Below, piece by piece: positions 930 to 27,325 of a stretch of 32,000 nucleotides of DNA (position 1 is its first letter; each line of letters begins with the position of its first letter). Location: positions 30,001 to 62,000 of the forward strand of contig JASBSB010000004.1 in NCBI GenBank assembly GCA_030149205.1. Reading direction: 5' to 3'. The position numbers and the translations under genes are program-made. Source of the DNA: Candidatus Heimdallarchaeota archaeon. GTDB taxonomy: Archaea; Asgardarchaeota; Heimdallarchaeia; Heimdallarchaeales; Kariarchaeaceae. The notes below the pieces were generated by a model. It saw nothing but the letters and a program-made list of their open reading frames with translations. It ran no database searches and had not been told where the DNA came from.

Positions 930-2102
930 TTAAACTTGGACATCTCCTGCAATCAGTCTGTAGACAATTACTAACAAATAGTGGTAATAAATCATTAAAG
1001 TGAAGTAACTAAATAGGTCCGGGATCAAACTTATTGTCATAAATGAGGTGACAAACCCAGAACCAACATCTGCAGATAAGCGTATAGCTATTGGTGTTAA
1101 ATACACGATAAGTGTTGTGATTATTCCAGGTAGTATCTTACTTGAAGCCCAACTGGGAAATAGATTAGAAATTGTACCCTCAGGATTTGCAAGGAAGGGA
1201 ATTAGATTCGACAGTAAATAGCCCCCTATTTTTGCTAAAGATGGTGCCATAGTTAATCCCAATATTCCAAATGAGCTCGCAAGTAAGAGCTGTAACAGAG
1301 CTAATGCGACAACACTTCCGCGGTGATAATATGCCATCCATCTTGCTTCCTCTGGTGATATTTGAATTATGTAAAATAAATTCAACAATGTCTGAGTGAC
1401 AATTGAGACAAGACCAATTCTCTTTGCCTCAAGTGAAATCGGGGTAAGACCATAACCTGATGGCTTTGATGGTGCAACTAGCATGGAAAAGGCTAAAAAT
1501 TCAATTACTAAGTTCAAGGCAAAGAATACAAAGGAATTAATCTGTGGATTTACACCTAATGTCTCTGGTAGCTCTATTCTAGGAAACAAATAAGGTGTAA
1601 GAATACGAAATTCTTCAACACCATCAAAGTTTAAAACCAAATCTAGAGGAGGGGTAATATCCATCTTGATAAAACGAGTTATTCCAGCAAATGTTATTAT
1701 ACCCCCATTACTTTGAGTTGCCACATTTATTGAATACTGAGCGCTGATGGTGTAAAATATGGTGTGTAACAGATTAATAAAAAAACTTTTGACATCTTCT
1801 ACAATTGGTAGGAGTATATTGTTGGCGATGAACTCTCCAGCCTCCTTTACCCCGTCGACGGTGACGCCGTCCTTGATGGTCTGTAGGGCTCTGACTGTGA
1901 AGGTGAAGAACTGGCTCAGCGCTTCCACCAGGGTCGCCCCAGGCTTGCCGATCAGCCCCATCACCCACAGGTTCTGCTGCCAGTTGTCATCCTCATCAAT
2001 ATGTTCAGCAACAAATGGGTGGGTTACCATAGAATTAATTACCACGTTAAATGATTCCTGATGGGTACAAGAATACACAAACCTATTATTCCTTAATATC
2101 AT
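930..2102 (-). CDS. Cassette ORF: leader + conserved anchor + variable hydrophobic C-terminal domain (putative polymorphic toxin CT)
   Basis: Contains VYSCTHQESF, WQQNLWVMGLIGKPGATLV and LQTIKDGVTVDGVKEAG, then several TM-like helices. Probable start is GTG at 2078. Confidence 0.75.
   Translation of the reverse strand: MILRNNRFVYSCTHQESFNVVINSMVTHPFVAEHIDEDDNWQQNLWVMGLIGKPGATLVEALSQFFTFTVRALQTIKDGVTVDGVKEAGEFIANNILLPIVEDVKSFFINLLHTIFYTISAQYSINVATQSNGGIITFAGITRFIKMDITPPLDLVLNFDGVEEFRILTPYLFPRIELPETLGVNPQINSFVFFALNLVIEFLAFSMLVAPSKPSGYGLTPISLEAKRIGLVSIVTQTLLNLFYIIQISPEEARWMAYYHRGSVVALALLQLLLASSFGILGLTMAPSLAKIGGYLLSNLIPFLANPEGTISNLFPSWASSKILPGIITTLIVYLTPIAIRLSADVGSGFVTSFMTISLIPDLFSYFTLMIYYHYLLVIVYRLIAGDVQV
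1806..1985 (-). repeat. GC-rich anchor repeat copy
   Basis: Matches the copies at 8711, 15661, 18677 and 26482. Carries the 6-nt-shorter T-VDG variant shared with 17588 and 24121. Confidence 0.9.
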
Positions 2103-2114
2103 TTAACTTTATCG
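2057..2114 (-). promoter_or_regulatory. Cassette head: BRE/TATA-like box + leader
   Basis: CGATAAAGTTAAAT, 24 nt from TTAA to GTG TAT TCT TGT ACC CAT CAG. Confidence 0.65.
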
Positions 2115-2214
2115 CACATCTGCGTTCCTATTGTATTATTCTGAGTTGTTTCATTGAAGCTTGTTTTGATCTATACCATAGTTATAGAGCACTTGGTGAG
2201 GTTTCTCCCTCAGG

Positions 2215-2925: not shown

Positions 2926-2930
2926 GTGTC

Positions 2931-3305
2931 TTACACCGCTGAGGAAAATCTTTTCAATAAGAATGTAACACCCAGAAATATAAAGGGTAATAAAATACCT
3001 GAAATAAAGCCTTTATCCCAAGTTCCTGTTTGGGCAACAGGATCTGTTTTTCCGAACCTATCCATGAGACCATAAGTTATAAGTTCAGAAATACTTATCA
3101 CTGTTATCCACGATTTCATTACTTGTGTAAGCTCTGCTTCCACAACATTATCGAAGAAATCATCAATTGCAGTTAGCACGAGAAGCCCCCTAGCAGTCAT
3201 CTTAACCAAGAGCGACTCCTTCTTCACTACATCAGTAACTGAATCTGCATCAGGAATCACCTCATTTCCTTTACCACCAAACAAAAACTGTTTTGCTTTG
3301 TACAC
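2931..3305 (-). CDS. N-terminally truncated toxin-CT tail (FGKxDP...FSSAV family)
   Basis: Aligns with the last ~120 aa of 4330..5457 and 25481..27325 (DDFFDNV, DRFGKTDP, FSSAV). Confidence 0.75.
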   Translation of the reverse strand: MYKAKQFLFGGKGNEVIPDADSVTDVVKKESLLVKMTARGLLVLTAIDDFFDNVVEAELTQVMKSWITVISISELITYGLMDRFGKTDPVAQTGTWDKGFISGILLPFIFLGVTFLLKRFSSAV

Positions 3306-3582: not shown

Positions 3583-4326
3583 TTAATTTGAACGTGAAAT
3601 CTTGAATGGACTTAGAGCAAATTTAGGGTTTAAACAGAATATTTCAATCATAATTATATAAAACACACCCTGAATTACGTAAAATAGCTCAGAATGAGAA
3701 TCAACATACTCAAGAATAATCATGAGATAAATTATGAACCAACTTGCAAAATAAAATATTTCCCAGATTGAGAGTTGAGATGGTTTTTTCTTAAGCAACA
3801 CGCTTACTAAGTATGAAACAGAAATTAGTAATATCAGCCCAATTCTTACCTGAGTGACTAAATGGGGAAGGAAGCTCATAAGAAAAAGGGTTAACACCCC
3901 TAAAACCCTAAAATTCAACATAATAAGATTGGTTTTATAAGACCAGAAATTTTTGTCAACTACTAAAACAATTTCTGATTTTTGATAGTCACTAAGAATA
4001 TCAAAGTAGAAAGCGAACCCCAAGAAAAATAGCCAAGAAAGGTAGTTACTTGAGACAAGAGATTGTCCAGCTATATAAAGCCATGGAAAAAAAGACATTG
4101 CATAAACAAGCTTAACATCTAATCTAAGATATTTAACCCATTTATTTCTAAATTTAATTCTAAAATAGTACAAGCTATAGGTCTTGGAGATTATGAAAAA
4201 TACAATAATACCCCACAAAACAATCTGACGGAGGGGATGTTCATAAAATAAATAGACTGGGTAGATCGTCAGGGTTAGGATGGTTCTCAAATAGAAATTT
4301 AATGAAACAAAGAGCTCTGTTTTCAT
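3583..4326 (-). CDS. Multi-TM membrane protein, putative immunity family I
   Basis: 247 aa, paralog of 2215..2925. Starts 3 nt after the stop of 4330..5457. Confidence 0.8.
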   Translation of the reverse strand: MKTELFVSLNFYLRTILTLTIYPVYLFYEHPLRQIVLWGIIVFFIISKTYSLYYFRIKFRNKWVKYLRLDVKLVYAMSFFPWLYIAGQSLVSSNYLSWLFFLGFAFYFDILSDYQKSEIVLVVDKNFWSYKTNLIMLNFRVLGVLTLFLMSFLPHLVTQVRIGLILLISVSYLVSVLLKKKPSQLSIWEIFYFASWFIIYLMIILEYVDSHSELFYVIQGVFYIIMIEIFCLNPKFALSPFKISRSN

Positions 4327-4329
4327 AAT

Positions 4330-5457
4330 CTACACCGCAGATGAAAATATTTTCAAAGTCCAAGTGACTAATAGAAGGACGGTTGGTAAAACAATAGGAG
4401 ATAAGAACTTTTTGTCCCCAAATCCTATTTTTGCCTGTGGGTCAGTTTTACCAAATTTATCCATCAATGCATAGGTTACTACTTCTGAAACACCAATAAC
4501 AGCCAACCATGAGTACATAATGGGTGTTAAGCTCGCATTTATCACATTGTCATAAAAATCATTCACTTGGGCTAAAAAGACAGCTAAAGTATATCCTACC
4601 TTTGCAGCTGGTGTATACTTCTGAGTTGATTGCTTTTCAATTACATCCCTTTCAATCTTTTGATTTTTGCCTTTAAAAATTGTTTTTAAGGACTTTCCTG
4701 TTTCATAAATTAGAAAAGATAATGGTAGTATAAACTTCAATGCTGAGAGCCAGGCTAATAAGAGTTTATCAAATTCATCCAAGTCAGATTTCGTCCAAGG
4801 ATTCAGGTTTCCAGGTGTGACTCGGTTCCTTTCTCGAATCATAATTAGAACACTAAAGAGCAAAACAATAAGACCAGAAACCCGTCCAATCACTGAGCCT
4901 ATCATCATGACCAAGGGCCCACCGGGCATCCAGCCAGTCTTCTGTGACAATGCTTGCAAGATGTATCCTGCGTTAAGAAGGTTTAACCCAATTCCCTGTG
5001 CCCACACAAGGCTGTCGATGCTGTCTGTAGCGGGAGAGGGCGTCTCAGCTCCGAGCACTATTTCAAGCAACACCTTGAGTAAATCCATCTCAATTGACTT
5101 TTGGCCAACACTCAGTCTTATAGTCGAGGTGCCCACGAGCAGCACATCAATGTTGACAGTGACTCCATCAATGTACGATGTCACACCGACACCCGTTTGA
5201 GTTGTGACCGTGTGATGCCCAATGGACAGTTCTTCAGGCATCTGAAATATAGCTGTGATCGTTTTTCGGATCATAGAAACCAGCGCTTCCATTATTGGTT
5301 TGATCACACTGTTCACAAGAAAATCACTAATTACCTTGACCCTAGGGACGTAAACACCTTCCCTGAATACCTCTAGATTAATAAAAGAGTAGCTGTAGTC
5401 ACTTTTACTTGTAAATGACTTCTGATGGAGGCAAGGATACACATATCTGATATACAT
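4330..5457 (-). CDS. Cassette ORF: leader + toxin-CT of the FGKxDP family
   Basis: YVYPCLHQKSF leader. Clear paralog of the C-terminal ~340 aa of 25481..27325 (DSLVWAQGIGL, RERNR, NPWTKxDLDEFDKL, DKFGKxDPQA). Probable start is GTG at 5442. Confidence 0.8.
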   Translation of the reverse strand: MYIRYVYPCLHQKSFTSKSDYSYSFINLEVFREGVYVPRVKVISDFLVNSVIKPIMEALVSMIRKTITAIFQMPEELSIGHHTVTTQTGVGVTSYIDGVTVNIDVLLVGTSTIRLSVGQKSIEMDLLKVLLEIVLGAETPSPATDSIDSLVWAQGIGLNLLNAGYILQALSQKTGWMPGGPLVMMIGSVIGRVSGLIVLLFSVLIMIRERNRVTPGNLNPWTKSDLDEFDKLLLAWLSALKFILPLSFLIYETGKSLKTIFKGKNQKIERDVIEKQSTQKYTPAAKVGYTLAVFLAQVNDFYDNVINASLTPIMYSWLAVIGVSEVVTYALMDKFGKTDPQAKIGFGDKKFLSPIVLPTVLLLVTWTLKIFSSAV

Positions 5458-5477
5458 TTAAGTCATTTAAGTTTATT
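5421..5477 (-). promoter_or_regulatory. Cassette head: BRE/TATA-like box + leader
   Basis: CAATAAACTTAAAT, 24 nt to GTG TAT CCT TGC CTC CAT CAG. Confidence 0.65.
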
Positions 5478-5833
5478 GTACATGCTTACATTGTCGTTTC
5501 ACCCAGATTTAAACGATTTACCTTTATAACAAATATCAAATCCTTTTGATTTATCGAGAAGTCCAGACTCAACGGAAGAAATAACTAAAGATTTCTGACA
5601 ATTAAAATAGATCAATATAAATTTCCTGAATTAAATTTGTTATTCAATTTATAACACCGCTTTTCTATTTTTTACACTGATAATTGTCCGCAAAAGTGTT
5701 AAATAATAGTATTTTGCAAAAATCCTTATTTGTTCTTTTGTTTGTTCTTCTGTATCTCTGCCTTTACAATTTTTGCATATTCAGGAGATGATAGCAAACC
5801 AAACAAAAAAATAAAAATTATTGCATTCCCTAA

Positions 5834-6334: not shown

Positions 6335-6585
6335 CAGTAAATCACTCCATCATTAATCCTTATATTGTGGAATTGATACTTTAAATATGCAAAATATCCT
6401 ATCAAAAGGGCAATTAGTAAATTTAATGCATAGCTCATAGGTGAAAAAGCGGCTATTGAAGTTATTATCCCAGCTATGCTGTAGATAGCAATAAATGAAA
6501 AGTCTCCAATCATTGGACTCGAAATCTCAACTAACAAGTATGACACTTTAACATCACCCTCGTTGATTTTCCTTTGGATAGACAA
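6331..6585 (-). CDS. Small hydrophobic ORF, possible toxin-CT tail remnant
   Basis: 84 aa with two hydrophobic helices, coupled to the downstream membrane gene as in other cassettes. No leader seen. Confidence 0.45.
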   Translation of the reverse strand: MSIQRKINEGDVKVSYLLVEISSPMIGDFSFIAIYSIAGIITSIAAFSPMSYALNLLIALLIGYFAYLKYQFHNIRINDGVIYW

Positions 6586-7711
6586 CCAAATAGACTGGTG
6601 GTAAGTTTTCCCTTTCTTTCACATATATGGCATATGGCATCCCATGATCATCAATTTCCTTAGGAATTGGGAGGTCAATCCCATCTATCTGTCCATACAG
6701 CTCAAATTCAGATCGAAGGGTTTCATCAAGTCCCTGATACTCTGTGACCAGAATATATTTATAGTCAAGGGTTTGAAAGAACAAATCATCATTGAAATTT
6801 AATGGGTTATAGCGAAGATCTAATAGCAAACCTTTGTTTCCTTGGAAATCAGTTGACATGATTTTTGTGATATTGTTATGCTTTAGATCAAAATATCTTA
6901 TATAATTACCATTGACCCCAAACCTTGGAACTTTGGTAAGAGTAAGGTGAGAAAGGATCAGAACAGGTTCAGATTTGAACCTTGAGAATTTTAAGTATCG
7001 GACTATGATTGTGAGAATCCTGATTAGGGGAAAATAATAGTTTATCAAAAGAATTGTTTTGCTTTGATTTGCTGCCTTTGACTCATTTCTTGTGCTTAGA
7101 ATGAAATCCCGCAATCTTATACTCTGAATGAAATCAATTTGTTGCTCAGCTAAAAATTTTCTAAAGCTAATGCTATCTAACAATGAATTTTTCCAATAGA
7201 AATAAAGAATGACATCAAGGAACAAGATTGAACAACCGACCAAGAGAGAAATTTTTGTTAAGTCAATAGAAATTGTGGTTTCTTTAAGATATCTAAGTAC
7301 CACAATAGTAACAATGACTGATGATACAGACATAAAGGTAATTAACACTGTCCAACGTGAATTAAAGATTGACTTGTAAAAGTTTAAAGGGGTTACGAGT
7401 GTTAGGGCAAATCCAAATGGTACCATGTAAATAGAGAAGAACATCATTATAAGATAATAGGTATCCCCCCAGCTATACTGTATTAAAGAGAAACTCTGAT
7501 TCAATGAAGCAGCACCAATTACTATAGTTTGAGCAACCACTTGCATCAGCAATGAGAGATTTAGTACGCGAAATTCACTAAAGTTTGAGATAAATGGATA
7601 GTCAGTCGCAGCATTTGAATTGATTCTGTTGTAGAAATCATTGATTAACGCAAAAGTGTAAAATTCCGAAAGATAGTCTGCTTCAATCTTAATAGGTTTT
7701 TGTCCATCCAC
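6554..7711 (-). CDS. Multi-TM protein with C-terminal leucine-rich repeats, putative immunity family II
   Basis: N-terminal TM helices followed by LRR-like units: LILSHLTLTKVP, IRYFDLKHNNITKI, LLLDLRYNPLNF. SD-like GAGGT upstream. Confidence 0.75.
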   Translation of the reverse strand: MDGQKPIKIEADYLSEFYTFALINDFYNRINSNAATDYPFISNFSEFRVLNLSLLMQVVAQTIVIGAASLNQSFSLIQYSWGDTYYLIMMFFSIYMVPFGFALTLVTPLNFYKSIFNSRWTVLITFMSVSSVIVTIVVLRYLKETTISIDLTKISLLVGCSILFLDVILYFYWKNSLLDSISFRKFLAEQQIDFIQSIRLRDFILSTRNESKAANQSKTILLINYYFPLIRILTIIVRYLKFSRFKSEPVLILSHLTLTKVPRFGVNGNYIRYFDLKHNNITKIMSTDFQGNKGLLLDLRYNPLNFNDDLFFQTLDYKYILVTEYQGLDETLRSEFELYGQIDGIDLPIPKEIDDHGMPYAIYVKERENLPPVYLVVYPKENQRG

Positions 7712-7716: not shown

Positions 7717-9036
7717 TTACCTCGTCATTATTGAGAAGCTCAGAAACCTTAAAAATAAATCAATTGTGTTTATCAAAAGATTGAGCTTTGTATCTGGAAT
7801 GAGTGCATCCAAATTTGAATACTTTTTTGCTGCTTCCTTGAGCTTTTCTTCTGTACTTATGGTGAATCTCTCTGTTTTTGGAGTTTTTTCTCCAGTATTG
7901 ATTATATTTATAAAGGTTAGTACTACTTCTTTCATGGATCCGATATAAGTTAAATCACCACTCATTAATAAATTCTCTGCTGTCCCAACCCTAATACCTA
8001 TCAAATGAGCAATAAACAAGACTGGATCCCCAATTATCAAATCTCTGTCTGCGATTAGTTTGTACAGGAATGAAAACACCTTTGATTGAAATATTTCTTA
8101 AAATATCGGAAATAAGATAAGAGATATTACCTTGGTTGATTTGCTTTTGTCTGAGAGAAGCATTCCTCTATAATAAAACAGGTTGATCACAAACATTGTA
8201 AAATATACCCTTGCCAGGAACTGGTTGATAAACAGGAAGGTCATAGAGTTAAGGCTCGATTTCAGGAGTAGAGCGGTTGCCAATGCAGCAAACAGGTTTG
8301 AAACTGAAAGAGCAATCTGTATCCCTGTAGCCTTCGGCTTGTCTGTGCTGAGCAGTGGGTAGATCAACCAAAAGCTCACCATGTTCAGAGCCTCAATTAT
8401 AAGAACTGAAAAGATGGTGAATCCAGCTGTCCGATAATCAATTAAAAGCGTCTCAATTGATACAGCAACCTCAGAAAGCAGTTTGTTGAAGTTGATGACA
8501 AAAGAGTCAATCTGAAATTTAACATTGTCACCTGTCACAAGCATGGCGAAGCCTAATTTTGTACCTGCGATTGATACTGTGGGAACTGCCCCTGAAGACC
8601 TTGTGACGTCAGGGAAAACGGCACTTAATAGTGAGAACAGACCATCTGTCAGGGTGTTAGTAAAGACCCCCAATACCTGAAGTATGACCTTAAAGACCTC
8701 TGCCATAATATAACTACCGGCCGCCTTGGTCCCGTCGACGAAGCTGGTGACGCCGTCCTTGATGGTCTGCAGGGCTGTGGTACTCATTGTCCAAAGCTTG
8801 CTGACAAAGTCCACCAGGGTCGCCCCAGGCTTGCCAATGATGCTCATCACCCACCGGTTCTGCTGCCAGCTGCCAGCAACATCAACGCACATCGTGATTA
8901 ATCCATCATAGACAAAGTCAGCAAAGATCAGAGAAACAAAATTTGTTGGGTTCAACAAGTCTGCAATACTGTGGTTAGGCAGGATGAGTAAGGTCTCATA
9001 AGAGGTCTGGTGCATACAGGGTACTGGTCTGTTCAT
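7717..9036 (-). pseudogene. Cassette toxin-CT ORF interrupted by one in-frame TAA
   Basis: ORFs 8098..9036 and 7717..8079 share a frame. The TAA at 8098-8100 is followed by open codons EIFQSK leading into the second ORF. Contains MNRPVPCMHQ and the full anchor. Confidence 0.7.
8711..8925 (-). repeat. GC-rich anchor repeat copy
   Basis: Near-identical to 26482..26695 over the TMSTTALQTIKDGVTSFVDG segment. Confidence 0.9.
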
Positions 9037-9084
9037 AAGTAAAAGTACAAGACCATTAAAGCTTCCCTTTATATAAATTTATCC
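9007..9084 (-). promoter_or_regulatory. Cassette head, long variant
   Basis: GGATAAATTTATATA, 22 nt, TTGTAC, 8 nt, ATG-x5-CMHQ. Same layout at 15958 and 18950. Confidence 0.65.
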
Positions 9085-9347
9085 TACAGAAAGTGATCGG
9101 TAGAACAGAAGCTTGATCAAGTATATGTCCTGATGAAAAGAGAGATACAAAAATCTTTGACTATACAATGGAGTTGTTCCTAGCCTATAAGGATTGTAAG
9201 TAGTCACTTTGGAAGCTTAATAACGATATAAATCCTGTAGAAGTGAGAATTTTTGGTTAAAATAACTTCAGCCAAATACAATGTGAACTTATTCATTTAT
9301 TGGTCTATTCAGGATCAAATTCTAATCACGTTCTACTTAAAAAAAAT

Positions 9348-10205
9348 TTACAAAAGATTTTCCACAAAAGGATTATTGACACCCATTATTTCTTGCATGA
9401 GATACAAAATCTGTGTAGATAGTTCATGCTTTTTTATGAAATTTACTATAACACTCTCATTTTGTAGTAAAATGATTGGGGGATAGAGCTGATCCAAATA
9501 TTCCTCAGTCACCTTCAATTTTGTATTAAAAACTTCTATAATCAAATGAGAGGTTGTGTTTGACTGCCTAAATTCTTTTATAACATCTTGGGAAATGTTT
9601 AGGTCTTCTATCGGATTGTTTGAGAGGCTTACAAACAATGTTGATTCAGGAAGGTGTAAAAGCCAATCTGAGGGGAGAATGGTCAATTTTTGGAATGCAA
9701 GGTTTACAAAATAGGGTAACTTTGATCTGTTGGGAGATAACAACGCACCATACCTCCCAATATATCTCAAAAATTGAATTGATTTTTGATAATCATCCCA
9801 GTCCTCCATCCGATTGCGATAAATTAGTGGAATACCTATAAATGCCAAAAAGAAATACATCAGTGGGAAATAAACTCTAATCAATTGAATTAGCAAACCT
9901 TTCTCGAACACAGAGAAATTGGTTAAAAAATCTGGCTGGACAACCATGTATAAAACAAAATATCCCATAGCTCGCTTGGGGGACAATTCAATAGAAACTT
10001 TAATGTGTAAAACTGCGAGGAGTATGAAACTAATGAAGATTAAGAAAATTAAATTAAAGTACCAAACAAAACTATTGGGATTATTGGACAGATTAAACTC
10101 AGTTCCATAGGTTATAAAACTTAGAAATCCAACATCAACAGAAACAATGAATATTGAAATACCAAACCTGTTCCAATATCTATTAATTATATCTGAAATA
10201 TTCAT
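9348..10205 (-). CDS. TM protein with C-terminal LRR-like segment, putative immunity family II
   Basis: About 4 TM helices, then VNLAFQKLTILP and VSLSNNPIEDL. ATGA overlap with the upstream ORF. Confidence 0.7.
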   Translation of the reverse strand: MNISDIINRYWNRFGISIFIVSVDVGFLSFITYGTEFNLSNNPNSFVWYFNLIFLIFISFILLAVLHIKVSIELSPKRAMGYFVLYMVVQPDFLTNFSVFEKGLLIQLIRVYFPLMYFFLAFIGIPLIYRNRMEDWDDYQKSIQFLRYIGRYGALLSPNRSKLPYFVNLAFQKLTILPSDWLLHLPESTLFVSLSNNPIEDLNISQDVIKEFRQSNTTSHLIIEVFNTKLKVTEEYLDQLYPPIILLQNESVIVNFIKKHELSTQILYLMQEIMGVNNPFVENLL

Positions 10206-10636
10206 TGATGTTTCGCCACCAGATCTGCATAGACCACACTAAGTCTCAGGTGATAGATTATGAACTTACAGATGCGAAAAATGCTTACTGGAATAGCAAA
10301 ATTTACTGTAATTTCATAAACAAATTGTTGTGAAATCTTCTTTAGCAGGACTTCAAACTCTTTAGTTGTACTCATAAACTCAATGAAATAAAAGCTTTGA
10401 AATGAAAAAATTGTTATTTTAATTAAATTATAGAAACAGACCATTACCTGCTCTAAAATGGGTTTTAGAAGTTTATTCACTATATAATCCCCGACTCCCC
10501 TCACCTCGTTGACAGTAACGCAGCCCCTGATGGTCTGTTGGTTAATAGACCTGACAATGAAGTCGCTGTGTGTTCCAATTCCAAAGGTTTCCTGATGAAG
10601 GCAAGGGTACACATACCTGATATACATTAAAACCAT
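10202..10636 (-). CDS. Shortened cassette ORF (leader + degenerate anchor + CT end)
   Basis: YVYPCLHQETF and QTIRGCVTVNEVRGVGDY, ending IIYHLRLSVVY. Probable start is GTG at 10612. Confidence 0.65.
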   Translation of the reverse strand: MVLMYIRYVYPCLHQETFGIGTHSDFIVRSINQQTIRGCVTVNEVRGVGDYIVNKLLKPILEQVMVCFYNLIKITIFSFQSFYFIEFMSTTKEFEVLLKKISQQFVYEITVNFAIPVSIFRICKFIIYHLRLSVVYADLVAKHQ

Positions 10637-10650: not shown

Positions 10651-10670
10651 CATTTAAGATGGGTTCACCC

Positions 10671-17765: not shown

Positions 17766-17777
17766 TTAAGTTTATCG
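17720..17777 (-). promoter_or_regulatory. Cassette head: BRE/TATA-like box + leader
   Basis: CGATAAACTTAAAT, 24 nt to GTG TAT GCT TGC CTT CAT CAG. Confidence 0.65.
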
Positions 17778-17903
17778 CACAAAAATCATGTACGTAATCT
17801 TGCCCTCTCATGAAAATTAATGATGGACCCCTTAGTTTACCATATCTTTGCTCCTTGGATTCTGTTTAATCTTCAATCAGTTTCACGGAATAGGTTAACA
17901 CAT

Positions 17904-18671: not shown

Positions 18672-18979
18672 ATTCTAACTCCGTCGACGAAGCTGGTGAC
18701 GCCCCTTTTGATCTCTGTGAGTGCCTTGTCTGTCAAACTCCACAGTTGGTTCACCGCATCCACCAGGGTCCAGGTGGGATGCCCGATCAGCCCCATCACA
18801 GTTTTCCACAGGTTCTGCTGCCAGCTACCTGTCACATCAACGCACATTATAATCAACCTGCTAATTGTGTGACTATCAAAGACCTGTAAAAGTGTAGATT
18901 TCATCATGTCTTCACCAATGTAGTTAGAGGATGAAAGCCTCAGATGAGGGTGATGTTGACAACTAGTTATTTCGTCCAT
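18668..18979 (-). CDS. Cassette ORF with leader + anchor but no CT domain
   Basis: MDEITSCQHH leader. Ends GVTSFVDGVRI-stop, with an ATGA overlap into 17904..18671. Confidence 0.65.
   Translation of the reverse strand: MDEITSCQHHPHLRLSSSNYIGEDMMKSTLLQVFDSHTISRLIIMCVDVTGSWQQNLWKTVMGLIGHPTWTLVDAVNQLWSLTDKALTEIKRGVTSFVDGVRI
18677..18847 (-). repeat. GC-rich anchor repeat copy
   Basis: VDVTGSWQQNLWKTVMGLIGHPTWTLVD..IKRGVTSFVDG. Confidence 0.9.
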
Positions 18980-19027
18980 AGGTAATGGTACAAGAAAACT
19001 AAGATTTACAGCTTAATAAATTTATCC
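18950..19027 (-). promoter_or_regulatory. Cassette head, long variant
   Basis: GGATAAATTTATTAA, 22 nt, TTGTAC, 8 nt, ATG-x5-CQHH. Confidence 0.6.
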
Positions 19028-19420
19028 TACCAAAGGTAGCAGCTGGATTGGGTTGTTGATACAATGTTTCAGAGAAAACTCCTTGAGGAGGATTCTTCAC
19101 TAAAAAATAATTCTGTGGTTAAGGAGGTCCTCAATTATATGAATAATAGAATTACTATCCGGGGTCGACTCCATTTACCAATATCTGCTAACGTTATCAT
19201 AAAATTTTGATGAGAGAGCTATATCAAAGAATATTGTAAAACCTTAAGCTCTTCTCTAGTTGTATATTTTATCTATATATATTATAAATTATCAACATTA
19301 CGAATTGACACTTGCTCATAGATTAGATTCATCCTTATAATTTGAATTATACTCGTTAGCTTTTGCTTGGGTAAAAGAATTAAATACGCAGGAGCTAACC
19401 TTTGTATTTATACCTCAATT

Positions 19421-20272
19421 CTAGTCCTGTCTTGTGTATAAAGTGAATATTACAAGAAGGAAAGTGGTGGCCCAGATTGTAACAAGACTGAAAGTGTGGA
19501 AATTAAAGGAAACTCCACTGAGAAAAAAATAAATTAAAAAGATAAGACTCCAGTATAAAATCAAGATGTATTCTGCCAATAGGAATAGCCATAAAAAGAG
19601 TCCAGGGTACTTTAAAAGTATTTCTACCAATGGATTAGCAAGCAGCAGTATAAGTAAGGTGGGAGTTTCGTGTGCAAATGGATTATTAACCACTTTCGGA
19701 TCAACTGTTTTGCGGAGGGCAAGCATGCTTCTTCCCATAAGTATCAGGCTCAGAAAATAAACAGAGAAAAATACAAAAGCGGTGATAATTGTGATATACC
19801 ATTCTGGACTGAGGAGGATGAGCATCAGAAAAGCAGAAAACAAAAGTGTTGATTCTTCAAATATCTGTGACTTGTTGATATAATTTTCGGCTTTTGCTCT
19901 AATCTTTATAGAAACATAGGTTAAGAACAACCAAGACAGGTATGATATGACCGCAAAAGATAATTGATAACCACCAACATCAGATAAAGCACCTTTCCTA
20001 AGCAGAAACATTGTGTTAATCAGGAGCAAAATCCATCTTACCCCCCGATTTTTCAGTTTTCCTCTTAGATTTATATTTCCAAAAACCTTGTAAATCCAAA
20101 AATAGGTAAGGATCATTGCAGTTCCTAATAGAATTTGTGAGATTACACCTGTAATGTAATTCTCAGATAAGATATACAGAAGAAGCAATCCAAATGTGGA
20201 AATTGAGACCTTGTGTACCCTCGTCTCAGTCAAGAGTGCAAAAAATTTCACATCCCATTTTCTTTCATTCAA
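19421..20272 (-). CDS. Multi-TM membrane protein, possible orphan immunity
   Basis: 283 aa, about 8 hydrophobic segments, no upstream toxin fragment seen. Confidence 0.75.
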   Translation of the reverse strand: MNERKWDVKFFALLTETRVHKVSISTFGLLLLYILSENYITGVISQILLGTAMILTYFWIYKVFGNINLRGKLKNRGVRWILLLINTMFLLRKGALSDVGGYQLSFAVISYLSWLFLTYVSIKIRAKAENYINKSQIFEESTLLFSAFLMLILLSPEWYITIITAFVFFSVYFLSLILMGRSMLALRKTVDPKVVNNPFAHETPTLLILLLANPLVEILLKYPGLFLWLFLLAEYILILYWSLIFLIYFFLSGVSFNFHTFSLVTIWATTFLLVIFTLYTRQD

Positions 20273-20659: not shown

Positions 20660-21235
20660 TTAGAATTGAAAAACGATGGATGCTAAATTTATCACCAGAA
20701 ATGAGGTAAAATAAATGTAAACCAGAATTTCTGAAAAATGACCTCTGTTAGAGACTTTAGATTGTTTCTCTTTATCCTGAATGAGCCCATTATCAGCTCC
20801 CCTTTTAGATGAGATTCTTGAGAGAACAAATTCTAACAAAAGGTAAAGAATTACTGTTGTGACTTCCACGACACCAAGAAAAATCAACTGCTTAGCTATA
20901 AGATCAAATAAGACTCCACTCCTTGAGTAGAAATAGATTATAATAAAAGGGGTCATTAATAAAATAACTATCAATGATCCAAGATATATTGTCCTTTCTA
21001 ACTCAGATCTTAGTGTTTTTGTCTTGTAATAGATCATTTTTAGTGAAAATGGTAATATTGAAAGATTCAGACCAACCAAAAAAAACAACAAGCTTATAGA
21101 ATAAAAGACCATGTTGAAAGTCGAAAGTACGAAGAATAGTGCCGAAAAGAAGTACAGAAAGAGGTTTGCTTTCAATAAGAGTTCAAGTGTCTTTTCTGAA
21201 TATGAGGGGTTACATTCTTTTATTAAAAATTTCAT
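20660..21235 (-). CDS. Membrane protein, putative immunity
   Basis: 191 aa, about 5 hydrophobic segments, GAGGT SD-like motif, follows 21260..21517. Confidence 0.7.
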   Translation of the reverse strand: MKFLIKECNPSYSEKTLELLLKANLFLYFFSALFFVLSTFNMVFYSISLLFFLVGLNLSILPFSLKMIYYKTKTLRSELERTIYLGSLIVILLMTPFIIIYFYSRSGVLFDLIAKQLIFLGVVEVTTVILYLLLEFVLSRISSKRGADNGLIQDKEKQSKVSNRGHFSEILVYIYFTSFLVINLASIVFQF

Positions 21236-21259: not shown

Positions 21260-21517
21260 TCACAACTGTAGCACCTGTGTTGTAAGGGTGAGGAAAATCA
21301 TTTCCGGTATTTTCACAATAATGGTATGAACTCCTTCCCCTATGGGTCTGATGATATTGTTGGAATTGAACTCACCAGCGTATTTCACCCGCTCGTTAAA
21401 GTTGGTGATACAGTCCTTGATGGTCTGCCGAAATACATCTGTCATTGAAAAACGAGTGAATGATCCAGCATCAAATGAATCCTGATGGAAACAGATGTAC
21501 ACATATCTATCATCCAT
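21260..21517 (-). CDS. Truncated cassette ORF (leader + degenerate anchor)
   Basis: YVYICFHQDSF and QTIKDCITNFNERVKYAGEF..NNIIRPI. Probable start is GTG at 21502. Confidence 0.55.
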   Translation of the reverse strand: MDDRYVYICFHQDSFDAGSFTRFSMTDVFRQTIKDCITNFNERVKYAGEFNSNNIIRPIGEGVHTIIVKIPEMIFLTLTTQVLQL

Positions 21518-21538
21518 TAATCTTATTTAAGTTTATTT
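21481..21538 (-). promoter_or_regulatory. Cassette head: BRE/TATA-like box + leader
   Basis: AAATAAACTTAAAT, 24 nt to GTG TAC ATC TGT TTC CAT CAG. Confidence 0.65.
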
Positions 21539-22029
21539 CCCAAATTTTAGTTATTAGAAATTCTAAATCTTTGTGTGGTTTTATTTTTTGTTTAAGTTTG
21601 AGTACTTCATAACCTTTTGCCATTGCAGGGAATAAAAAGCTCAACCAATGACCAGAGATGCAAACACCAAGAAATCCAGCAATTACCAGATCATTTCGGG
21701 GAGGAAAGCCAAACCTAATCTACCACTGCTGCTATACCCGCTTTCAACAAATTCTGTAGTGTTTGCGGTGTTGTTTTTATGATAGGAAATGACTATTTGT
21801 TAGTGGGTCTGGGAACTGTTTTTTATATTAGTTACCTTGTCACAGGGATCTGTGATGATCTTTCAGGAAATTTCCGCATCCATTGACCTTCACTACATTT
21901 AACTACAATGTTTCATCAAGTTTTTTCTCTTTTAGTTAGGAAATGCAGTTTAGCTTGATTAATATAATTTTATTCGGATCACTAACCTAGTAAAGCCTAA
22001 AAAGACAACAATGTGTTGTAAGCTAGTCT

Positions 22030-22532: not shown

Positions 22533-23090
22533 CTAGTAAAATACAAGTACCAGGAGTATCCTATATGCTTTTGGTTCCCAACTCATCCGAGCATTTAACA
22601 TTAACAACGTTGCAATAGCTCCCATAGATATAGTCCAAGTACCTCCAAGCAGTAATGTATGTTCAAATACAACTTGGTTTATGTCTAAGGTTTCATAAAT
22701 TAAATCTGTGGATGAAATCAATGGACTTTTAATTATAAATACATTATTATTTACGTTAAATTGTATGCCTTTGATTACTCCTTGTACATCAATGGTTAAA
22801 ACTAGAGTATTTTGCTTTTTAACACAAATAAAATTGTTCAAAAGTTCAACAACATTTCCATCTAACATTGAAATTGTTTTGAAAATAGCAAAAAGCATTG
22901 TTTTTACAGTTATTGCTATAAATTGATGAATTACCTCAAGGACTGCATTCATAATATAACTACCGGCTGCTTTCACCCCATCGACGAAGCTGGTGACGCT
23001 GCTCCTAATACTCTGAAAGTTACTATACATGGTAATTGAGTGCTTTTCAGTTTCGAAATCAAATGACAGCTGATGGAGACAGCAGTACAC
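22533..23090 (-). CDS. Truncated cassette ORF (leader + partial anchor + start of CT)
   Basis: VYCCLHQLSF and SVTSFVDGVKAAGSYIM. The start is taken as GTG 23090; the track's extension to 23354 overlaps 23146..23913. Confidence 0.6.
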   Translation of the reverse strand: MYCCLHQLSFDFETEKHSITMYSNFQSIRSSVTSFVDGVKAAGSYIMNAVLEVIHQFIAITVKTMLFAIFKTISMLDGNVVELLNNFICVKKQNTLVLTIDVQGVIKGIQFNVNNNVFIIKSPLISSTDLIYETLDINQVVFEHTLLLGGTWTISMGAIATLLMLNARMSWEPKAYRILLVLVFY

Positions 23091-23125
23091 AGAAGTAATA
23101 TCCAATGATTTCATATAAAGTTTCC
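23069..23125 (-). promoter_or_regulatory. Cassette head: BRE/TATA-like box + leader
   Basis: AGGAAACTTTATAT, 24 nt from TTAT to GTG TAC TGC TGT CTC CAT CAG. Confidence 0.6.
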
Positions 23126-23145
23126 TCATTCCAGTTGAAGTATGA

Positions 23146-23913
23146 CTAATGACTCTTTCTATCACTAGAAAATACAAATTCGTTGGTGGTTGATGACCCT
23201 TCATCATTTTTAGAAGGTGAGTGATTGACATCCTCTGAAGCATTTGAATGTTGAATTGAGAACTGAAATGGGTAACTTCGTAAGATAGGAACTCCATTAA
23301 TCTCAGAGTTAAAAAATGGCTCAGCGAGGATTTTAAGCAAAAGTAGTAATGCAAACAACATGATTGTGAGTATCAAAAGTGTGTTCGTTGTAAGATAGAC
23401 ACTTAATTTTTCATTTTGCATCCTCCATCCAGAAGAGAGTAATAGAGATAAAAGCATATAAATTCCGGATAACAAAGAAGAGACATATAACCCCTGTCTC
23501 TTCTCCAAGTTGGATCGCAAATTGGTTTTAACTTTAATTACCTTGTAGATGACACCAGTTCCGATAAGGAACGGACAAAATATTGCAAGATAAACAGTGT
23601 AAATATTTATCCATTCTGCATAGGTACTAAAAAGCAGAAATTCGAATGGATAAAGCAGGAACAACAACAAAACGCTGATCTTTAGCAGTATTTGGTCTGG
23701 TAGCTCGATGAGTGTATAGAAAACATAGAAATTAGAAAAGTTAGATAATCCCCACCACATTAGAATGAGAATGCCCTGTAAAGTTAGAGCTACTATCCCT
23801 TGGTGCCTTACTGCATAAAATAATTCCCAAGTCAAGCTGTATACGAAAACCACAGTTAGAGCAGACAGTGTTAGGACAATGTTCTGTTTGTAATATTTAA
23901 GAAACGCTTTCAT
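23146..23913 (-). CDS. Multi-TM membrane protein, putative immunity
   Basis: 255 aa, about 6 TM segments, AAAGGTG upstream, 10 nt after the stop of 23924..24295. Confidence 0.7.
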   Translation of the reverse strand: MKAFLKYYKQNIVLTLSALTVVFVYSLTWELFYAVRHQGIVALTLQGILILMWWGLSNFSNFYVFYTLIELPDQILLKISVLLLFLLYPFEFLLFSTYAEWINIYTVYLAIFCPFLIGTGVIYKVIKVKTNLRSNLEKRQGLYVSSLLSGIYMLLSLLLSSGWRMQNEKLSVYLTTNTLLILTIMLFALLLLLKILAEPFFNSEINGVPILRSYPFQFSIQHSNASEDVNHSPSKNDEGSSTTNEFVFSSDRKSH

Positions 23914-23923: not shown

Positions 23924-24295
23924 TTAAAATGATTGGTTGTCTATCATCGCATACATCACTGCTAAAACAACATGGTAAAATGTGTAAAACATCATGTATG
24001 TATTAGACTGAATCAAGATATTCCCTGAGGAATCCACAGTCACACTTACTGAAATTATTGTTTCAACAATCTGTAACAGGCCAAGTATTGCTGAGCGATA
24101 CACATTCATCATTTCTTCTGCAATAGGCAGGGGTGTATTGTTGGCTATGACCTCCCCAGCAGCCTTGATCCCGTCGACGGTGACGTCTCCCCTGATGGTC
24201 TGCAGGGCTGTGAAAGTGAAGCTACTGTGTGTTCCAGTTTCATAGGATTCCTGATGAAGGCAAGGGTACACATACCTGATATACATTAAAACCAT
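23924..24295 (-). CDS. Internally deleted cassette ORF
   Basis: YVYPCLHQESY and FTALQTIRGDVTVDGIKAAGE..NN, ending MFYTFYHVVLAVMYAM. Probable start is GTG at 24271. Confidence 0.65.
   Translation of the reverse strand: MVLMYIRYVYPCLHQESYETGTHSSFTFTALQTIRGDVTVDGIKAAGEVIANNTPLPIAEEMMNVYRSAILGLLQIVETIISVSVTVDSSGNILIQSNTYMMFYTFYHVVLAVMYAMIDNQSF
24121..24222 (-). repeat. Short anchor repeat copy
   Basis: Matches the 1806..1910 copy, T-VDG variant. Confidence 0.85.
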
Positions 24296-24308
24296 TTAAG
24301 TTTTTCTC
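24250..24308 (-). promoter_or_regulatory. Cassette head: BRE/TATA-like box + leader
   Basis: Near-identical to 10591..10650. Confidence 0.65.
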
Positions 24309-24356
24309 ACATTTAAGATAGGTTCACCCCTCTCCCATCATCACTGGAGAGTCTTT

Positions 24357-24395: not shown

Positions 24396-24708
24396 TTAGG
24401 TGAATATTTTTATAGGTGTTTCTCATGGAGCTTCTTAGCATTGGCCCTTGAAAATTGCTGCCTTCCCCTTTGATGATCTATTGTGTGATTGTTTTAGAGA
24501 CGAGTGGAGGAGATCCTTTAAATGGGGATCCTTTTTATGTGTATAACGGGACACAATTCCATGACTCCTTTCTTCTAAATTTATCATATAGGATTAATTA
24601 TCCTATCCAGAATATCTATGGTAAGTATTCCTTTTCAGAATCTATCAAATTTGAAAGTCAATAGGAAGATTAATCACTAAAAACAGTCTCAAACGAATCT
24701 TTTTATAG

Positions 24709-25488
24709 TTACACAGCTGAGACAACTTTTATTTTGCAAAATGAACAAATCTTGACTGTGAGCCAGTCAAGATACGCAGCAAAAACCAATATTCCAGCCT
24801 TAGAAACTACAAATACTACTAAAACACCTGATCCTCTGTCCGAGATGAAATTTTGTCCCAGAAATGCCAGTGCTATTAAGTTTTCAACAAAAATTAATGC
24901 TATAACACCATAAGCGATTAAGTCCCAACTTCCCAAATCAGATAACAGTTTATCCTGAAAAATGTTAACAAAAAATAGGAGAATAAACAGAAGCAATGCA
25001 GTTATCTTTACTGTATCCCATTCATTGTCTAGGAAACTCAAAACAAAAAGAGAAATTAAGATAATCAATCGAGCAAAAAACAACCTATATTTTCTTACCT
25101 CAAATTTTTTCGATTCAGAGTTAAACACCTTTCTAAGCACAGGATCATCAGAAAAAATATCTGAGGCAATTATGGCATAGATAGCTAGTATCATCAAAAA
25201 TAAATTTCTACTAATTATTACACCCAAAAACCCTAGAATTGAATAGCTGTAATATACCAAATAGTCTTTATCTCTTTCAGTAATTTTATGGAGAAGTATT
25301 CGACTAATTGTTTTAGAAATTATTACTAAGATCATCATTCCTCCTAGGATACCAAACCCCTCCCAGCTTAGGAAAGAGACCCTGTTTTGGAGTTGAATGT
25401 AAAGCATTATTGGAAACAGCAACATAATTACTTGTCGCAGAAAAAAATTCGTTAGACGCAAATTTTCTGGTTCCATAATATCACACAA
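24709..25488 (-). CDS. Multi-TM membrane protein, putative immunity family I
   Basis: 259 aa, paralog of 17904, 3583 and 2215. Likely start is ATG 25476, just after the toxin-like ORF stop. Confidence 0.8.
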   Translation of the reverse strand: MCDIMEPENLRLTNFFLRQVIMLLFPIMLYIQLQNRVSFLSWEGFGILGGMMILVIISKTISRILLHKITERDKDYLVYYSYSILGFLGVIISRNLFLMILAIYAIIASDIFSDDPVLRKVFNSESKKFEVRKYRLFFARLIILISLFVLSFLDNEWDTVKITALLLFILLFFVNIFQDKLLSDLGSWDLIAYGVIALIFVENLIALAFLGQNFISDRGSGVLVVFVVSKAGILVFAAYLDWLTVKICSFCKIKVVSAV

Positions 25489-27325
25489 CTGATGAAAACA
25501 GTTTTAGCACCTCTTTGAATATAAAAAACAAAAAGGGTAAAACCACAAGAGAGTACCCTTTTTTGCTAAAGAAGGTTGCTGCTGCCTGAGGGTCTCCTTT
25601 TCCAAATTTATCCAGCACTGCATAGCTGACGATCTCTCCACTTGCTACGCCTGCGAGCCAGAAGTACATCGTTGGTGTCAGGGGATTATCAATCACATTG
25701 TCCTTAAAATCGTTGTAGCTCGAGATGAAAATATATAAGAGTTTAGCTAAACTCGTCTTAGCTGTTAATTTGTTCTCTTTTGCGAACTCTTCTAAGACCT
25801 TTTTGAATCCATTTTTACCCTCCTTGACTATCGTTTTGACTGCCTTTCCAGCATTATACACTGTATATGAGAATGGTAAAACAAAGATCAGCGCAGAAAG
25901 CCATCCAACCATAAGTTTGTCGAATTCATCAAGGTCTTCCTTTGTCCATGGGTTAAGGTTTACGTCAGCAAAGAGATACCTGTTCCTCTCTCTGAATATA
26001 TTTATGAAAGTCAGTAATAGTACGGCTTGTGATGCAATAAAGAGCCCTAGGGACGTAAGGGTGGCACCCAAGGGGCCCAACACAGGTACAGCCCCATTGG
26101 TCTTTTGTGATAACGCACTGGCAATATAGGCTGCATTAAGCAGAGAGAGCCCTATCCCCTGTGCCCAAACAAGGGAATCAGCACTTGACCCAGCGGGAGA
26201 AAGGGTCTCACTGCCGATGATCAGCTCTAAAATGGTCTGGAATAGATCAACTGTGGTTGTTTTGCCCCCAACCACCATTTTCATTGTTGATACACCAACA
26301 AGCTCTATGGTTATATCTAACACCTTGTTATCGATGTATGAGGTGAGACGGAGGCCATTTGGGATTAGCACGGTGTTATATCCGGGAGAGGTCTCACCAA
26401 GTGTTAAAAACAACGCATTAACGACATTTCGAAAGATAGAGATCAGACCCTCCATTATAGGCTTAATCACCTTGTTGACGAAGAACTCTCCGGCGAATTT
26501 CACCCCATCGACGAAGCTGGTGACGCCGTCCTTGATGGTCTGCAGGGCTGTGGTACTCATTGTCCAAAGCTCACTGACAAAGTCCACCAGGGTCGCCCCA
26601 GGCTTCCCAATGATGCTCATCACAGTGTTCCACAGGTTCTGCTGCCAGCTCCCCGCAACATCGATGTAGGTGTCATAGATGTGGTCAGCAAAGACCAGGA
26701 TGGCAACCTTGGCGACAGCCACATAGTCCAGGCCTGTATTGGGGTCATACCTCAGATTGTTTGGATGGTCAAGGTTCAGCTCAGTGATCAAGGCGTCGTC
26801 CTTCAGGATCACGTTTGCCAGCCGGTTCTGCTGGGGCTCCTCCTTGTACCAGTTGATGATGCGCTCCACTGAGCCAAAGCCATAGTCGTTGATCTTGCCC
26901 CAGACGAAGTCAAAGAGCTTGTACTCCCTGTAGATGACCACATTTCCAATCTTGATGTCATAGCCAAGCCAGCTGTTCAGGATGCTCTTGGTGTTGGCCC
27001 TCAGGCTGTTGAAGTCCTGCACCACCTTCTCCAGCAGCAGAGAGACATCAAAGACCCGGTCCTTGGTGGGTTGTGTCTCACTGGCAGTCTTCATGGAGGC
27101 ACGCGCAGTTGGTGGCACCTGTGCCGCCTGCTTCTCATTGTCCGGGCTCCAGCTGAAGCCTGTCCCCTTGATCAGGGCTGTCAGCACCGAGTGGTTGGCA
27201 GCCAACTGGTGACGTGGGGCAAACTCAAGGGTTTCCTGATGTTTTAGGATTTGAGCTCTGTATCGATTTAACCCGAGCTCAAAGGGTGTAGAATTGCCGC
27301 ATTGAACTCTGTATCTTTGATGCAT
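25481..27325 (-). CDS. Longest cassette ORF: extended GC-rich conserved region + anchor + FGKxDP-family CT (first module of the array)
   Basis: 614 aa. Region ~26480-27240 is visibly GC-rich and contains the full anchor. The C-terminal part is paralogous to 4330..5457 and 2931..3305. No signal peptide seen. Confidence 0.8.
   Translation of the reverse strand: MHQRYRVQCGNSTPFELGLNRYRAQILKHQETLEFAPRHQLAANHSVLTALIKGTGFSWSPDNEKQAAQVPPTARASMKTASETQPTKDRVFDVSLLLEKVVQDFNSLRANTKSILNSWLGYDIKIGNVVIYREYKLFDFVWGKINDYGFGSVERIINWYKEEPQQNRLANVILKDDALITELNLDHPNNLRYDPNTGLDYVAVAKVAILVFADHIYDTYIDVAGSWQQNLWNTVMSIIGKPGATLVDFVSELWTMSTTALQTIKDGVTSFVDGVKFAGEFFVNKVIKPIMEGLISIFRNVVNALFLTLGETSPGYNTVLIPNGLRLTSYIDNKVLDITIELVGVSTMKMVVGGKTTTVDLFQTILELIIGSETLSPAGSSADSLVWAQGIGLSLLNAAYIASALSQKTNGAVPVLGPLGATLTSLGLFIASQAVLLLTFINIFRERNRYLFADVNLNPWTKEDLDEFDKLMVGWLSALIFVLPFSYTVYNAGKAVKTIVKEGKNGFKKVLEEFAKENKLTAKTSLAKLLYIFISSYNDFKDNVIDNPLTPTMYFWLAGVASGEIVSYAVLDKFGKGDPQAAATFFSKKGYSLVVLPFLFFIFKEVLKLFSSVV
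26482..26695 (-). repeat. GC-rich anchor repeat, reference copy
   Basis: VFADHIYDTYIDVAGSWQQNLWNTVMSIIGKPGATLVDFVSELWTMSTTALQTIKDGVTSFVDGVKFAGEFF. Confidence 0.9.

Follow-up and report, generated by a model that had tools for sequence, protein, structure and literature searches.

A Candidate C-Terminal Displacement Array of a Lineage-Specific Surface-Protein System in a Heimdallarchaeota Genome

The Cassette Arrays

The subject of this study is an array of repeated gene cassettes in a Candidatus Heimdallarchaeota archaeon (NCBI GenBank assembly GCA_030149205.1), found in a window—the whole stretch of DNA analysed—of 32,000 nucleotides (nt) that corresponds to positions 30,001 to 62,000 of contig JASBSB010000004.1 (C1:30001-62000). 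The genome measures 3.3 Mb with 35.5% GC in 12 contigs, and the assembly is 93.5% complete; an archaeal small-subunit rRNA is present, and TATA-type boxes upstream of genes fit an archaeal host. Coordinates without a prefix refer to the window, those prefixed C1, C2, C3, or C7 to contigs of the source genome; among relatives, G001, G002, G003, G007, and G011 denote genomes and P0001, P0007, and P0012 giant proteins. Array 1 holds about 20 cassettes over about 42 kb (C1:15355-57325), and array 2, with about four cassettes (C1:94069-100780), lies inverted on the opposite strand, 37 kb from array 1. The genes in the window that carry a common sequence, here called the anchor, are nested 5′-truncated copies (n = 11), and all of them lie on the minus strand.

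The cassettes follow one order: a head box, a leader, a handle fragment with its tail, and then one to several polytopic membrane genes, which often overlap the tail stop codon by 4-8 nt. The head box resembles a transcription factor B recognition element with a TATA box (BRE/TATA-like, GATAAAyTTAwAT), and 13 of the 25 genome-wide matches to these 13 nt fall in the two arrays, on the coding strand. The leader (...IRYVYxCxHQxSF) is short and conserved and meets the handle at five or more different points. Since every copy, the longest included, has a TATA-like box and a leader, the copies are transcription-unit cassettes rather than bare truncated fragments. In short-form heads an in-frame GTG follows the box after 22 nt, which fits a leaderless archaeal transcript, a class whose box-to-start spacing rule is textbook knowledge. 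The leader codon positions are conserved almost equally (0.85, 0.91, and 0.75); conservation at the peptide and at the DNA level would both fit, and the near-equal values lend a selected peptide weak support. Cassettes of G007, which belongs to another genus, have a related leader, LMGFRIRxVDP... (LM..IR.V.P), behind a TATA-like box, with the handle joined at W[VI]SALW. A CUGAUGA in the leader was considered as part of a hammerhead ribozyme and dropped, an Rfam scan of the window being without hits.

The longest cassette, a 614-residue gene hereafter called main, serves as reference for the anchor comparisons. Its N-terminus (RYRVQCG...FELG; RYVYPCLHQESFEIG) is a diverged copy of the cassette leader, so main is the cassette with the longest handle and not a remnant of a parent gene. 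Ahead of the tail lies a domain of about 240 residues, the pre-tail domain, which in an alignment of 15 members ends in the anchor. The features are as follows (aa, amino acids; TM, transmembrane segments; GC3, GC content at third codon positions; I-A, a family of partner genes).

25481-27325 (-): main, 614 aa; diverged leader, ~240-aa pre-tail domain, anchor, type-A hydrophobic tail
26471-27235 (-), main codons 31-285: pre-tail domain, proposed recombination handle (from GC3)
26472-26662 (-): anchor proper, repeated in the orphan cassettes, ending at VDGxKxAG (blastn, alignments)
26201-26209 (-): ETL motif (E373-T374-L375 of main), at least 90% conserved in 35 family members
24709-25488 (-): partner of main, I-A, ~7 TM, overlapping the main stop by 8 nt
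23924-24295 (-): orphan cassette, leader and QTI anchor, SF deletion, shortened tail; 123 aa (the paralogue C1:23644-24585 has 313 aa)
23146-23913 (-): partner, 6 TM, 58% identical to C1:98137-98880 in array 2
22533-23129 (-): orphan cassette, leader YCCLHQ, VTSF anchor; likely start at 23129 or 23114
21260-21517 (-): orphan cassette, QTI anchor, tail cut to ~40 aa; followed by membrane genes 20660-21235 and 19421-20272
18668-18979 (-): orphan cassette, stop at the switch (VDGVRI*), tail deleted, 4-nt overlap with the next gene
17904-18671 (-): intact I-A partner directly behind this tail-less anchor, 39% identical to the partner of main and 77% to C1:24723-25490
17262-17765 (-): orphan cassette, leader, QTI anchor, SF deletion, short atypical tail
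14578-15987 (-): orphan cassette, 469 aa, long-form head, VFAD anchor, GHPGW, full-length tail with FETLG; followed by membrane genes 13761-14585 and 12846-13661
10202-10636 (-): orphan cassette, leader and degenerate QTI anchor, 4-nt overlap with the partner 9348-10205
8098-9036 (-): orphan cassette, 312 aa, long-form head, VFAD anchor, 92% identical to that of main at the nucleotide level
4330-5457 (-): orphan cassette, degenerate anchor, type-A tail 46% identical to that of main; I-A partner at 3583-4326
2931-3305 (-): type-A tail fragment, 5′-cut, last 124 aa only; intact I-A partner at 2215-2925
930-2102 (-): orphan cassette, 390 aa, leader, WQQ anchor, SF deletion, full tail with PETLG; partner at 309-929
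17703-17783 (-): cassette-head module, reference copy of box and leader (repeat families D2 and D11; alignment)
2040-2120, 5404-5484, 10574-10654, 21464-21544, 24233-24313: other short head copies
9031-9094, 15982-16045, 18974-19037: long-form heads; the head of main lies near 27326-27375

Two genes stand somewhat apart. Past the switch, the 17262-17765 product has a charged, coiled-coil-like tail of about 120 aa in place of the β unit, the ETL motif, and the hydrophobic helices found elsewhere; a fusion created by deletion, or a tail of another type, may account for it. The gene at 6554-7711 (minus strand) occupies a partner position and encodes a 385-aa membrane protein with a weak leucine-rich-repeat hit (LRR_8, E = 8e-4, below the Pfam cut-off) and a paralogue at C1:17608-18729 (27% identical).

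Recombination Among the Anchor Copies

A first-pass annotation, made from the letters of the window, had described the copies as mosaics that begin at different points and share one 3′ end. Comparison of main with the genome by blastn places the anchor (main nt 26662-26472) at eight further sites in the window, with E values from 1e-60 to 3e-4; a weak copy near 10540 was found by blastp, and further copies lie in the remainder of array 1 and in array 2.

1983-1819, 8883-8731, 15834-15682, 17670-17643 (-): anchor copies in the window (blastn)
18838-18678, 21428-21368, 22999-22963, 24212-24179 (-): anchor copies in the window, continued (blastn)
C1:17216, C1:24490, C1:25645 (-): anchor copies upstream of the window
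C1:94872, C1:97856, C1:99047 (+): anchor copies in array 2

Protein and codon alignments bear out the common 3′ end, each copy stopping at the VDGxKxAG switch point, as well as the differing 5′ starts (VFAD, VDV, WQQ, QTI, and VTSF), which lie 5-60 nt from the positions first read off: blastp homology starts at 8931, 15879, 2003, 24211, 17666, 21451, 10537, and 23060 match the earlier 8925, 15876, 1985, 24222, 17668, 21430, 10540, and 23000. The shared insertions, deletions, and motifs that had been noticed were recovered as well. A 2-codon insertion after NLW is common to main, the 18979 copy, and C1:25744; GHPxW to the 15987 and 18979 copies; TMSTTALQT to main, the 9036 copy, and C1:17326; and a 6-nt SF deletion to the 2102, 10636, 17765, and 24295 copies and, additionally, to C1:17326 and C1:94776. 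In the alignments these characters occur in conflicting combinations. Seven long copies provide 42 informative sites, and 339 of the 861 site pairs are incompatible; the pairwise homoplasy index (PHI) amounts to 0.19-0.27 against a permuted mean of 0.40, none of 5000 permutations reaching it at any of three window sizes. With PHI far below all permutations and so many incompatible pairs, the copies do not fit one tree, a fit that the earlier annotation had itself named as the outcome that would speak against it. C1:25744 is a visible recombinant: the first 75 nt resemble main, and the last 60 nt match the 18979 copy without a difference. Recombination or gene conversion among the copies is thus supported.

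These data bear on the view, considered here highly unlikely, that the arrays represent an ordinary lineage-specific family of small membrane proteins which arose by tandem duplication and divergence, with the leader as a sorting or secretion signal, the GC-rich stretch as a foreign patch (handle plus neighbouring gene) copied around, and the giant proteins described below as secondary fusions. A promoter-like box in every copy and a leader conserved across two genera agree with such an origin. It predicts a single tree, however, and the copies are strongly mosaic; the five or more leader-handle junctions likewise argue against it, as does the near-equal conservation of the leader codon positions, which lends a selected peptide weak support.

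A Giant Parent Gene in Related Genomes

Main residues 34-286 match the C-terminal ends of long open frames in genomes of the same family (G003, 2524 aa; G011, 1184 aa; G007, 787 aa, the frame lying at a contig end). The G003 giant (P0001, >2508 aa) features a signal-like hydrophobic N-terminus and Laminin_G_3 domains. A HMMER scan of 1.84 billion representative proteins returned 49 relatives only, among them giants of 2661, 1988, and 1199 aa, the first two of which (P0007 and P0012, respectively) also carry Laminin_G_3 domains. Scanned with a profile of the pre-tail domain, five of 11 further genomes in the family contain it; none of 71 genomes that represent the other families of the class does, and neither does any of 370 genomes from elsewhere in the phylum (completeness of at least 70%). 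To judge from these profiles, the pre-tail/anchor family would be confined to one family of the Heimdall group. A search of genome contigs for related loci with a single protein found nothing. The parent gene postulated by the first-pass annotation as unseen therefore exists in relatives, as a giant LamG gene, and was not found in the present assembly.

Two loci of relatives merit description in their own right. In G003, the body of the giant gene lies between two handles in inverted orientation (locus L020 on contig C209, 1-300, minus strand, and 9964-10272, plus strand); these are 97.6% identical, with six differences in about 247 aligned positions, and their protein sequences are identical over about 80 aligned residues. 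Recombination between the two would invert the gene body and thereby swap the tail. Behind P0007 (locus L051, NCBI GCA_026702845.1, JADCLS010000017.1), positions 17999-19606 hold one 2-TM gene, followed by a tyrosine integrase and small genes of the toxin-antitoxin type. No anchor repeat usable as an att site was found at L051, and there is no tyrosine integrase near the arrays of the source genome.

The GC-Rich Handle

A step in base composition at the anchor boundary, likewise part of the original description, is confirmed by the 150 nt on either side of the switch and by the GC3 profile. Across the switch, GC drops from 0.56 to 0.45 in main, from 0.60 to 0.48 in the 9036 copy, from 0.56 to 0.27 in the 15987 copy, and from 0.61 to 0.36 in the 2102 copy. 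In main, GC3 is 0.63-0.93 before the switch and about 0.45 from codon 286 onwards, with GC at the first and second codon positions unchanged. The GC3 of the handle (0.76-0.80) belongs to the top 0.1% of the genome in 80-codon windows, for which the mean is 0.311, the standard deviation 0.071, and the 99.9th percentile 0.688.

The same step is found in relatives. The G003 giant has a GC3 of 0.25-0.50 over 2300 codons and of 0.71-0.76 in its last 200, so the supposed GC-rich parent is not GC-rich as a whole, the description holding for its handle. In cassettes of G007, G001, and G002, anchors reach 0.59-0.84, with tails mostly at 0.29-0.55 and leaders at 0.29-0.50. The step is thus common to three genera, although handles across genera share merely 36-49% protein identity; at this divergence the bias must have been maintained rather than inherited from one transfer. 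By contrast, the pre-tail domain of P0007 lies at baseline (0.22-0.33), and no orphan cassette is present within 6.7 kb downstream. About seven loci are available for a comparison of handle GC3 with cassette number. The recurrence of the step in three genera and its absence from P0007, whose locus shows no spare cassettes over these 6.7 kb, point to recombination-driven GC enrichment in the handle rather than to a single transfer event, as far as sequence comparison can tell. GC-biased repair of heteroduplexes in an often-recombining tract would be the simplest account.

The import of a GC-rich foreign patch, as proposed under the duplication hypothesis, draws some strength from the neighbourhood, since other high-GC3 spots are insertion sequence (IS) transposases, i.e., imported DNA, and since the patch reaches over the gene divergent from the array head.

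27464-28366 (+): 300-aa gene with tandem 9-residue repeats, GC3 0.61, divergent from the array head

On the other side, the GC3 rise is confined to the tract common to the copies and recurs in handles that have diverged widely, and synonymous sites would long have relaxed after one import.

The 300-aa gene has no Pfam or NCBIfam hit and is one of a multi-copy family that numbers 3-9 members in each genome. GC3 in this family is 0.58-0.61 next to arrays versus 0.33-0.52 in all but one other copy, the exception being a G007 copy with a GC3 of 0.58 on a contig on which no cassette was found. A copy in housekeeping context (C7:429719-430594, minus strand) has a GC3 of 0.34, and another, G007:C215:3362-4093, immediately precedes a cassette. 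An inverted fragment of the gene next to the array-2 tail (C1:101058-101456, minus strand; 80-82% identical) and the intact copy heading array 1 make up an inverted repeat with arms 43 kb apart, an arrangement that would fit a past inversion. The G003 giant is preceded by a gene that was considered as a homologue of the 300-aa gene and is not one.

Elsewhere in the genome, two near-identical transposase-like open reading frames (C2:372021-372833 and C3:2-919; GC3 0.7-0.8) look like a recent IS import and are the only other coding regions with a GC3 as high as that of the handle. A secreted subtilisin-like protein with a long run of YWSVP pentapeptides (C2:183505-185382, minus strand) has a local GC3 of 0.70-0.71.

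Tails and Their Partners

Over 250-290 residues, the 9036 and 2102 tails are 38% and 31% identical, respectively, to that of main, and the ETL motif recurs about 90 residues past the switch, with the conservation given above. Type-A tails (alignment A3) comprise those of main, 4330-5457, C1:94776, and the fragment 2931-3305. The three in array 1 are each followed by an I-A partner; the gene behind the array-2 copy (C1:95902-96714) has no BLAST match to the I-A family, which numbers five members with 19-41% identity and 14 invariant positions (alignment A2). The AlphaFold2 model of main (mean predicted local distance difference test score, pLDDT, 66) shows a helical pre-tail domain, one long helix through anchor and switch, a confident five-strand β unit (residues 316-360) followed by the ETL loop, and long hydrophobic helices (378-613; pLDDT 43-82); the model of the I-A partner has a pLDDT of 60, too low for a fold search. 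A complex prediction for type-A tail (A3) and I-A partner (A2) scored 0.00, a value which, obtained without controls, is evidence neither for nor against an interaction. Matches of a PDB profile search (A4) to a phage tape-measure protein and FtbJ (E = 0.02-0.04), and a weak Pfam match of the anchor helix to Tape_meas_lam_C (E = 0.07), were treated as compositional.

The decay of the cassettes is uneven. C1:25487-25744 and 18668-18979 have their stop precisely at the switch (VDGVRI*), and each is followed immediately by an intact I-A gene; together with the tail fragment, three cassettes have thus retained an intact I-A gene without a complete tail. Several other tails are cut to 40-85 aa, and the membrane gene behind them is intact.

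What the pair does can be read in two ways. Under the same genetics of displacement and conversion, tail and partner might be a matched membrane pair instead of weapon and antidote, anchoring a giant adhesin and serving self/non-self recognition or cell compatibility, as in Proteus IdsD/IdsE or Myxococcus TraA, or else varying in order to escape viruses that use the tail or the partner. Makarova et al. (2021, PMC8416519) put forward the same alternatives for VARTIG, an archaeal module. The single architecture of all tails, with its ETL motif, would be in keeping with a matched pair, as would the lack of any toxin fold among the matches and the signal-like N-terminus, which with the hydrophobic helices predicts insertion into the membrane of the producer. 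The cassettes that lost the tail at the switch and kept the partner are, in contrast, what is expected for an antidote and not for one half of a recognition pair, and the large stock of partners behind decayed tails resembles bacterial orphan-immunity islands. A matched pair is therefore held to be rather unlikely, and we infer from this retention, which matches bacterial orphan-immunity genes, that roles as toxin and immunity protein are to be preferred.

Relation to Known Systems

Archaeal polymorphic toxin systems in which the C-terminus of a large surface protein is hypervariable have reportedly been described. In general, polymorphic toxin systems (Zhang et al. 2012, PMC3482391) combine a conserved region with a variable C-terminal module that begins at a fixed point, a cognate downstream gene that co-varies with this module, and downstream orphans that carry part of the conserved region and recombine. 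All three are found here, the protective role of the downstream gene being predicted from sequence; the large secreted protein is seen in relatives (P0001, P0007, and P0012) and not in this assembly.

In the Rhs loci of Enterobacteriaceae, tips that have become dissociated were identified from a peak in GC together with homology to the core (Jackson et al. 2009, PMC2935791). The array shares with Rhs the conserved GC-rich core, the fixed junction, the AT-rich variable tip, and the small downstream gene, as well as displaced tips located downstream behind core fragments of varied length. Unlike Rhs proteins, main and the giants have no YD repeats or Rhs core (Pfam finds Laminin_G/Pentaxin only), and the junction reads VDGxKxAG rather than PxxxxDPxGL. 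Further differences are the archaeal host, tips that are membrane modules from a single divergent superfamily, a conserved promoter-like box and leader in each orphan, and the inverted second array.

In contact-dependent inhibition (CDI), ionophore tails consist of a variable entry domain and a membrane-spanning helical bundle, and their immunity proteins are polymorphic, with about 30% identity within a group (Halvorsen et al. 2024, PMC11630599). The resemblance to CdiA-CT/CdiI of the EC93 type, a system with orphan cdiA-CT/cdiI modules, lies in the giant surface protein ending in a variable domain and membrane helices, and in the adjacent polymorphic membrane partner (about 20-40% identity within a group). 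There is no match in sequence or fold, and Pfam detects no two-partner secretion (TPS) domain, CdiB, filamentous haemagglutinin (FHA) repeat, or VENN motif in main and the giants; an archaeon, which has no outer membrane, would need another route of delivery. Against the five-helix bundle of the CDI ionophores, the modelled long helices of main (378-613) give generic helical matches only (Z at most 9.1).

VARTIG of the Thermococcales, a large surface protein whose C-terminal part is rendered hypervariable by recombination (Makarova et al. 2021, PMC8416519), is the nearest described archaeal module, with a hypervariable C-terminus, variable downstream genes, and a layout like that of polymorphic toxins. 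It differs in that an immunoglobulin (Ig) domain is varied in VARTIG, whereas here it is a membrane tail behind a LamG giant, with long arrays of orphans; no Ig-type Pfam domain is found in main or the giants. The locus thus appears to work like Rhs, CdiA, and VARTIG and belongs to none of them, being without their defining features. The layout is known from toxin and antidote systems that bacterial strains use against one another; here it is made up of protein families without any database name.

A Model for the Arrays

Taken together, the locus is probably an array produced by C-terminal displacement, in the style of Rhs and CDI, within a polymorphic surface-protein system specific to this lineage, its toxin and immunity roles being predicted by analogy. 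A giant secreted LamG protein, such as seen in relatives, would end in the pre-tail domain, the VDGxKxAG switch, and a variable membrane-inserting tail, followed by a polytopic partner gene translationally coupled to the tail gene. Incoming cassettes of tail and partner would bring a promoter of their own together with a short leader and part of a handle, and recombination with the resident gene would take place within the GC-rich handle. This would push the earlier tail downstream, behind a handle fragment whose length is set by the incoming cassette. Such displacement with variable handle lengths would leave copies that are truncated to different extents at the 5′ end and share their 3′ end. 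The mosaics would stem from gene conversion recurring among the handles, which could also drive third codon positions towards G/C. If CDI ionophore toxins and pore-forming colicins are taken as a guide, the most likely role of the tail is that of a membrane-depolarising toxin, with the partner as the immunity protein specific to it. As the assembly lacks the giant delivery part, the about 20 cassettes would serve mainly as a store of immunity genes and a reservoir for recombination.

A number of observations weigh against this displacement model. The tails are divergent versions of one architecture (30-38% identity by blastp) rather than unrelated domains and, to judge from their sequences, would fit a variable membrane anchor equally well; behind an N-terminal signal peptide, the modelled tail would by default end up in the membrane of the cell that makes it. 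Pfam, NCBIfam, PDB profile, Foldseek, VIA-align, and Atlas searches recognised no known toxin family or fold in the C-terminal module: Pfam and NCBIfam have no family for main, Foldseek against the PDB gives nothing at E ≤ 0.001 for the 614-aa model, VIA-align wide gives generic helical hairpins only (Z at most 9.1), and Atlas feature searches with tail and pre-tail domain score 0.76-0.79, i.e., at chance level. Neither a LamG domain nor homologues of the N-terminal parts of the giants were found in the assembly. With regard to GC, the handle of P0012 is moderately raised (0.51-0.54) with no orphan in 10 kb, and the other high-GC3 spots of the genome are copies of imported IS transposases. Main codons 91-165, where the GC3 of the handle is highest, are without a second copy in the genome, so conversion among array copies alone is insufficient and exchange between strains or import is needed. 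Logan contigs of the source sequencing run break at the repeats in the window and offer no independent sign of rearrangement; apparent joints in these contigs are explained by paralogues mapping at 85% likeness.

A more far-reaching proposal, modelled on antigenic variation and shufflons, would take the GC3 of the handle as a footprint of GC-biased conversion in an Asgard archaeon and, at the same time, the locus as a device for programmed, reversible tail switching instead of a passive graveyard. Promoter-bearing cassettes, inverted arrays (in G003, inverted handles), and the GC-rich gene at the array border, in two genera, would here act together, a combination that might hint at active switching. 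This conjunction is regarded as doubtful.

Significance

Cassettes for a giant surface protein's tail, predicted to be membrane-active, take up some 42 kb and 7 kb, about 1.5% of the genome; built from families without database annotation, the locus is a concrete, testable candidate. Whether recombination drives GC enrichment in an archaeon could also be tested here in a natural setting of unusual clarity: GC3 rises from 0.31 to 0.8 over the tract common to the copies, and this jump recurs in diverged relatives with arrays and is missing in one relative (P0007) without spare cassettes at the examined locus.

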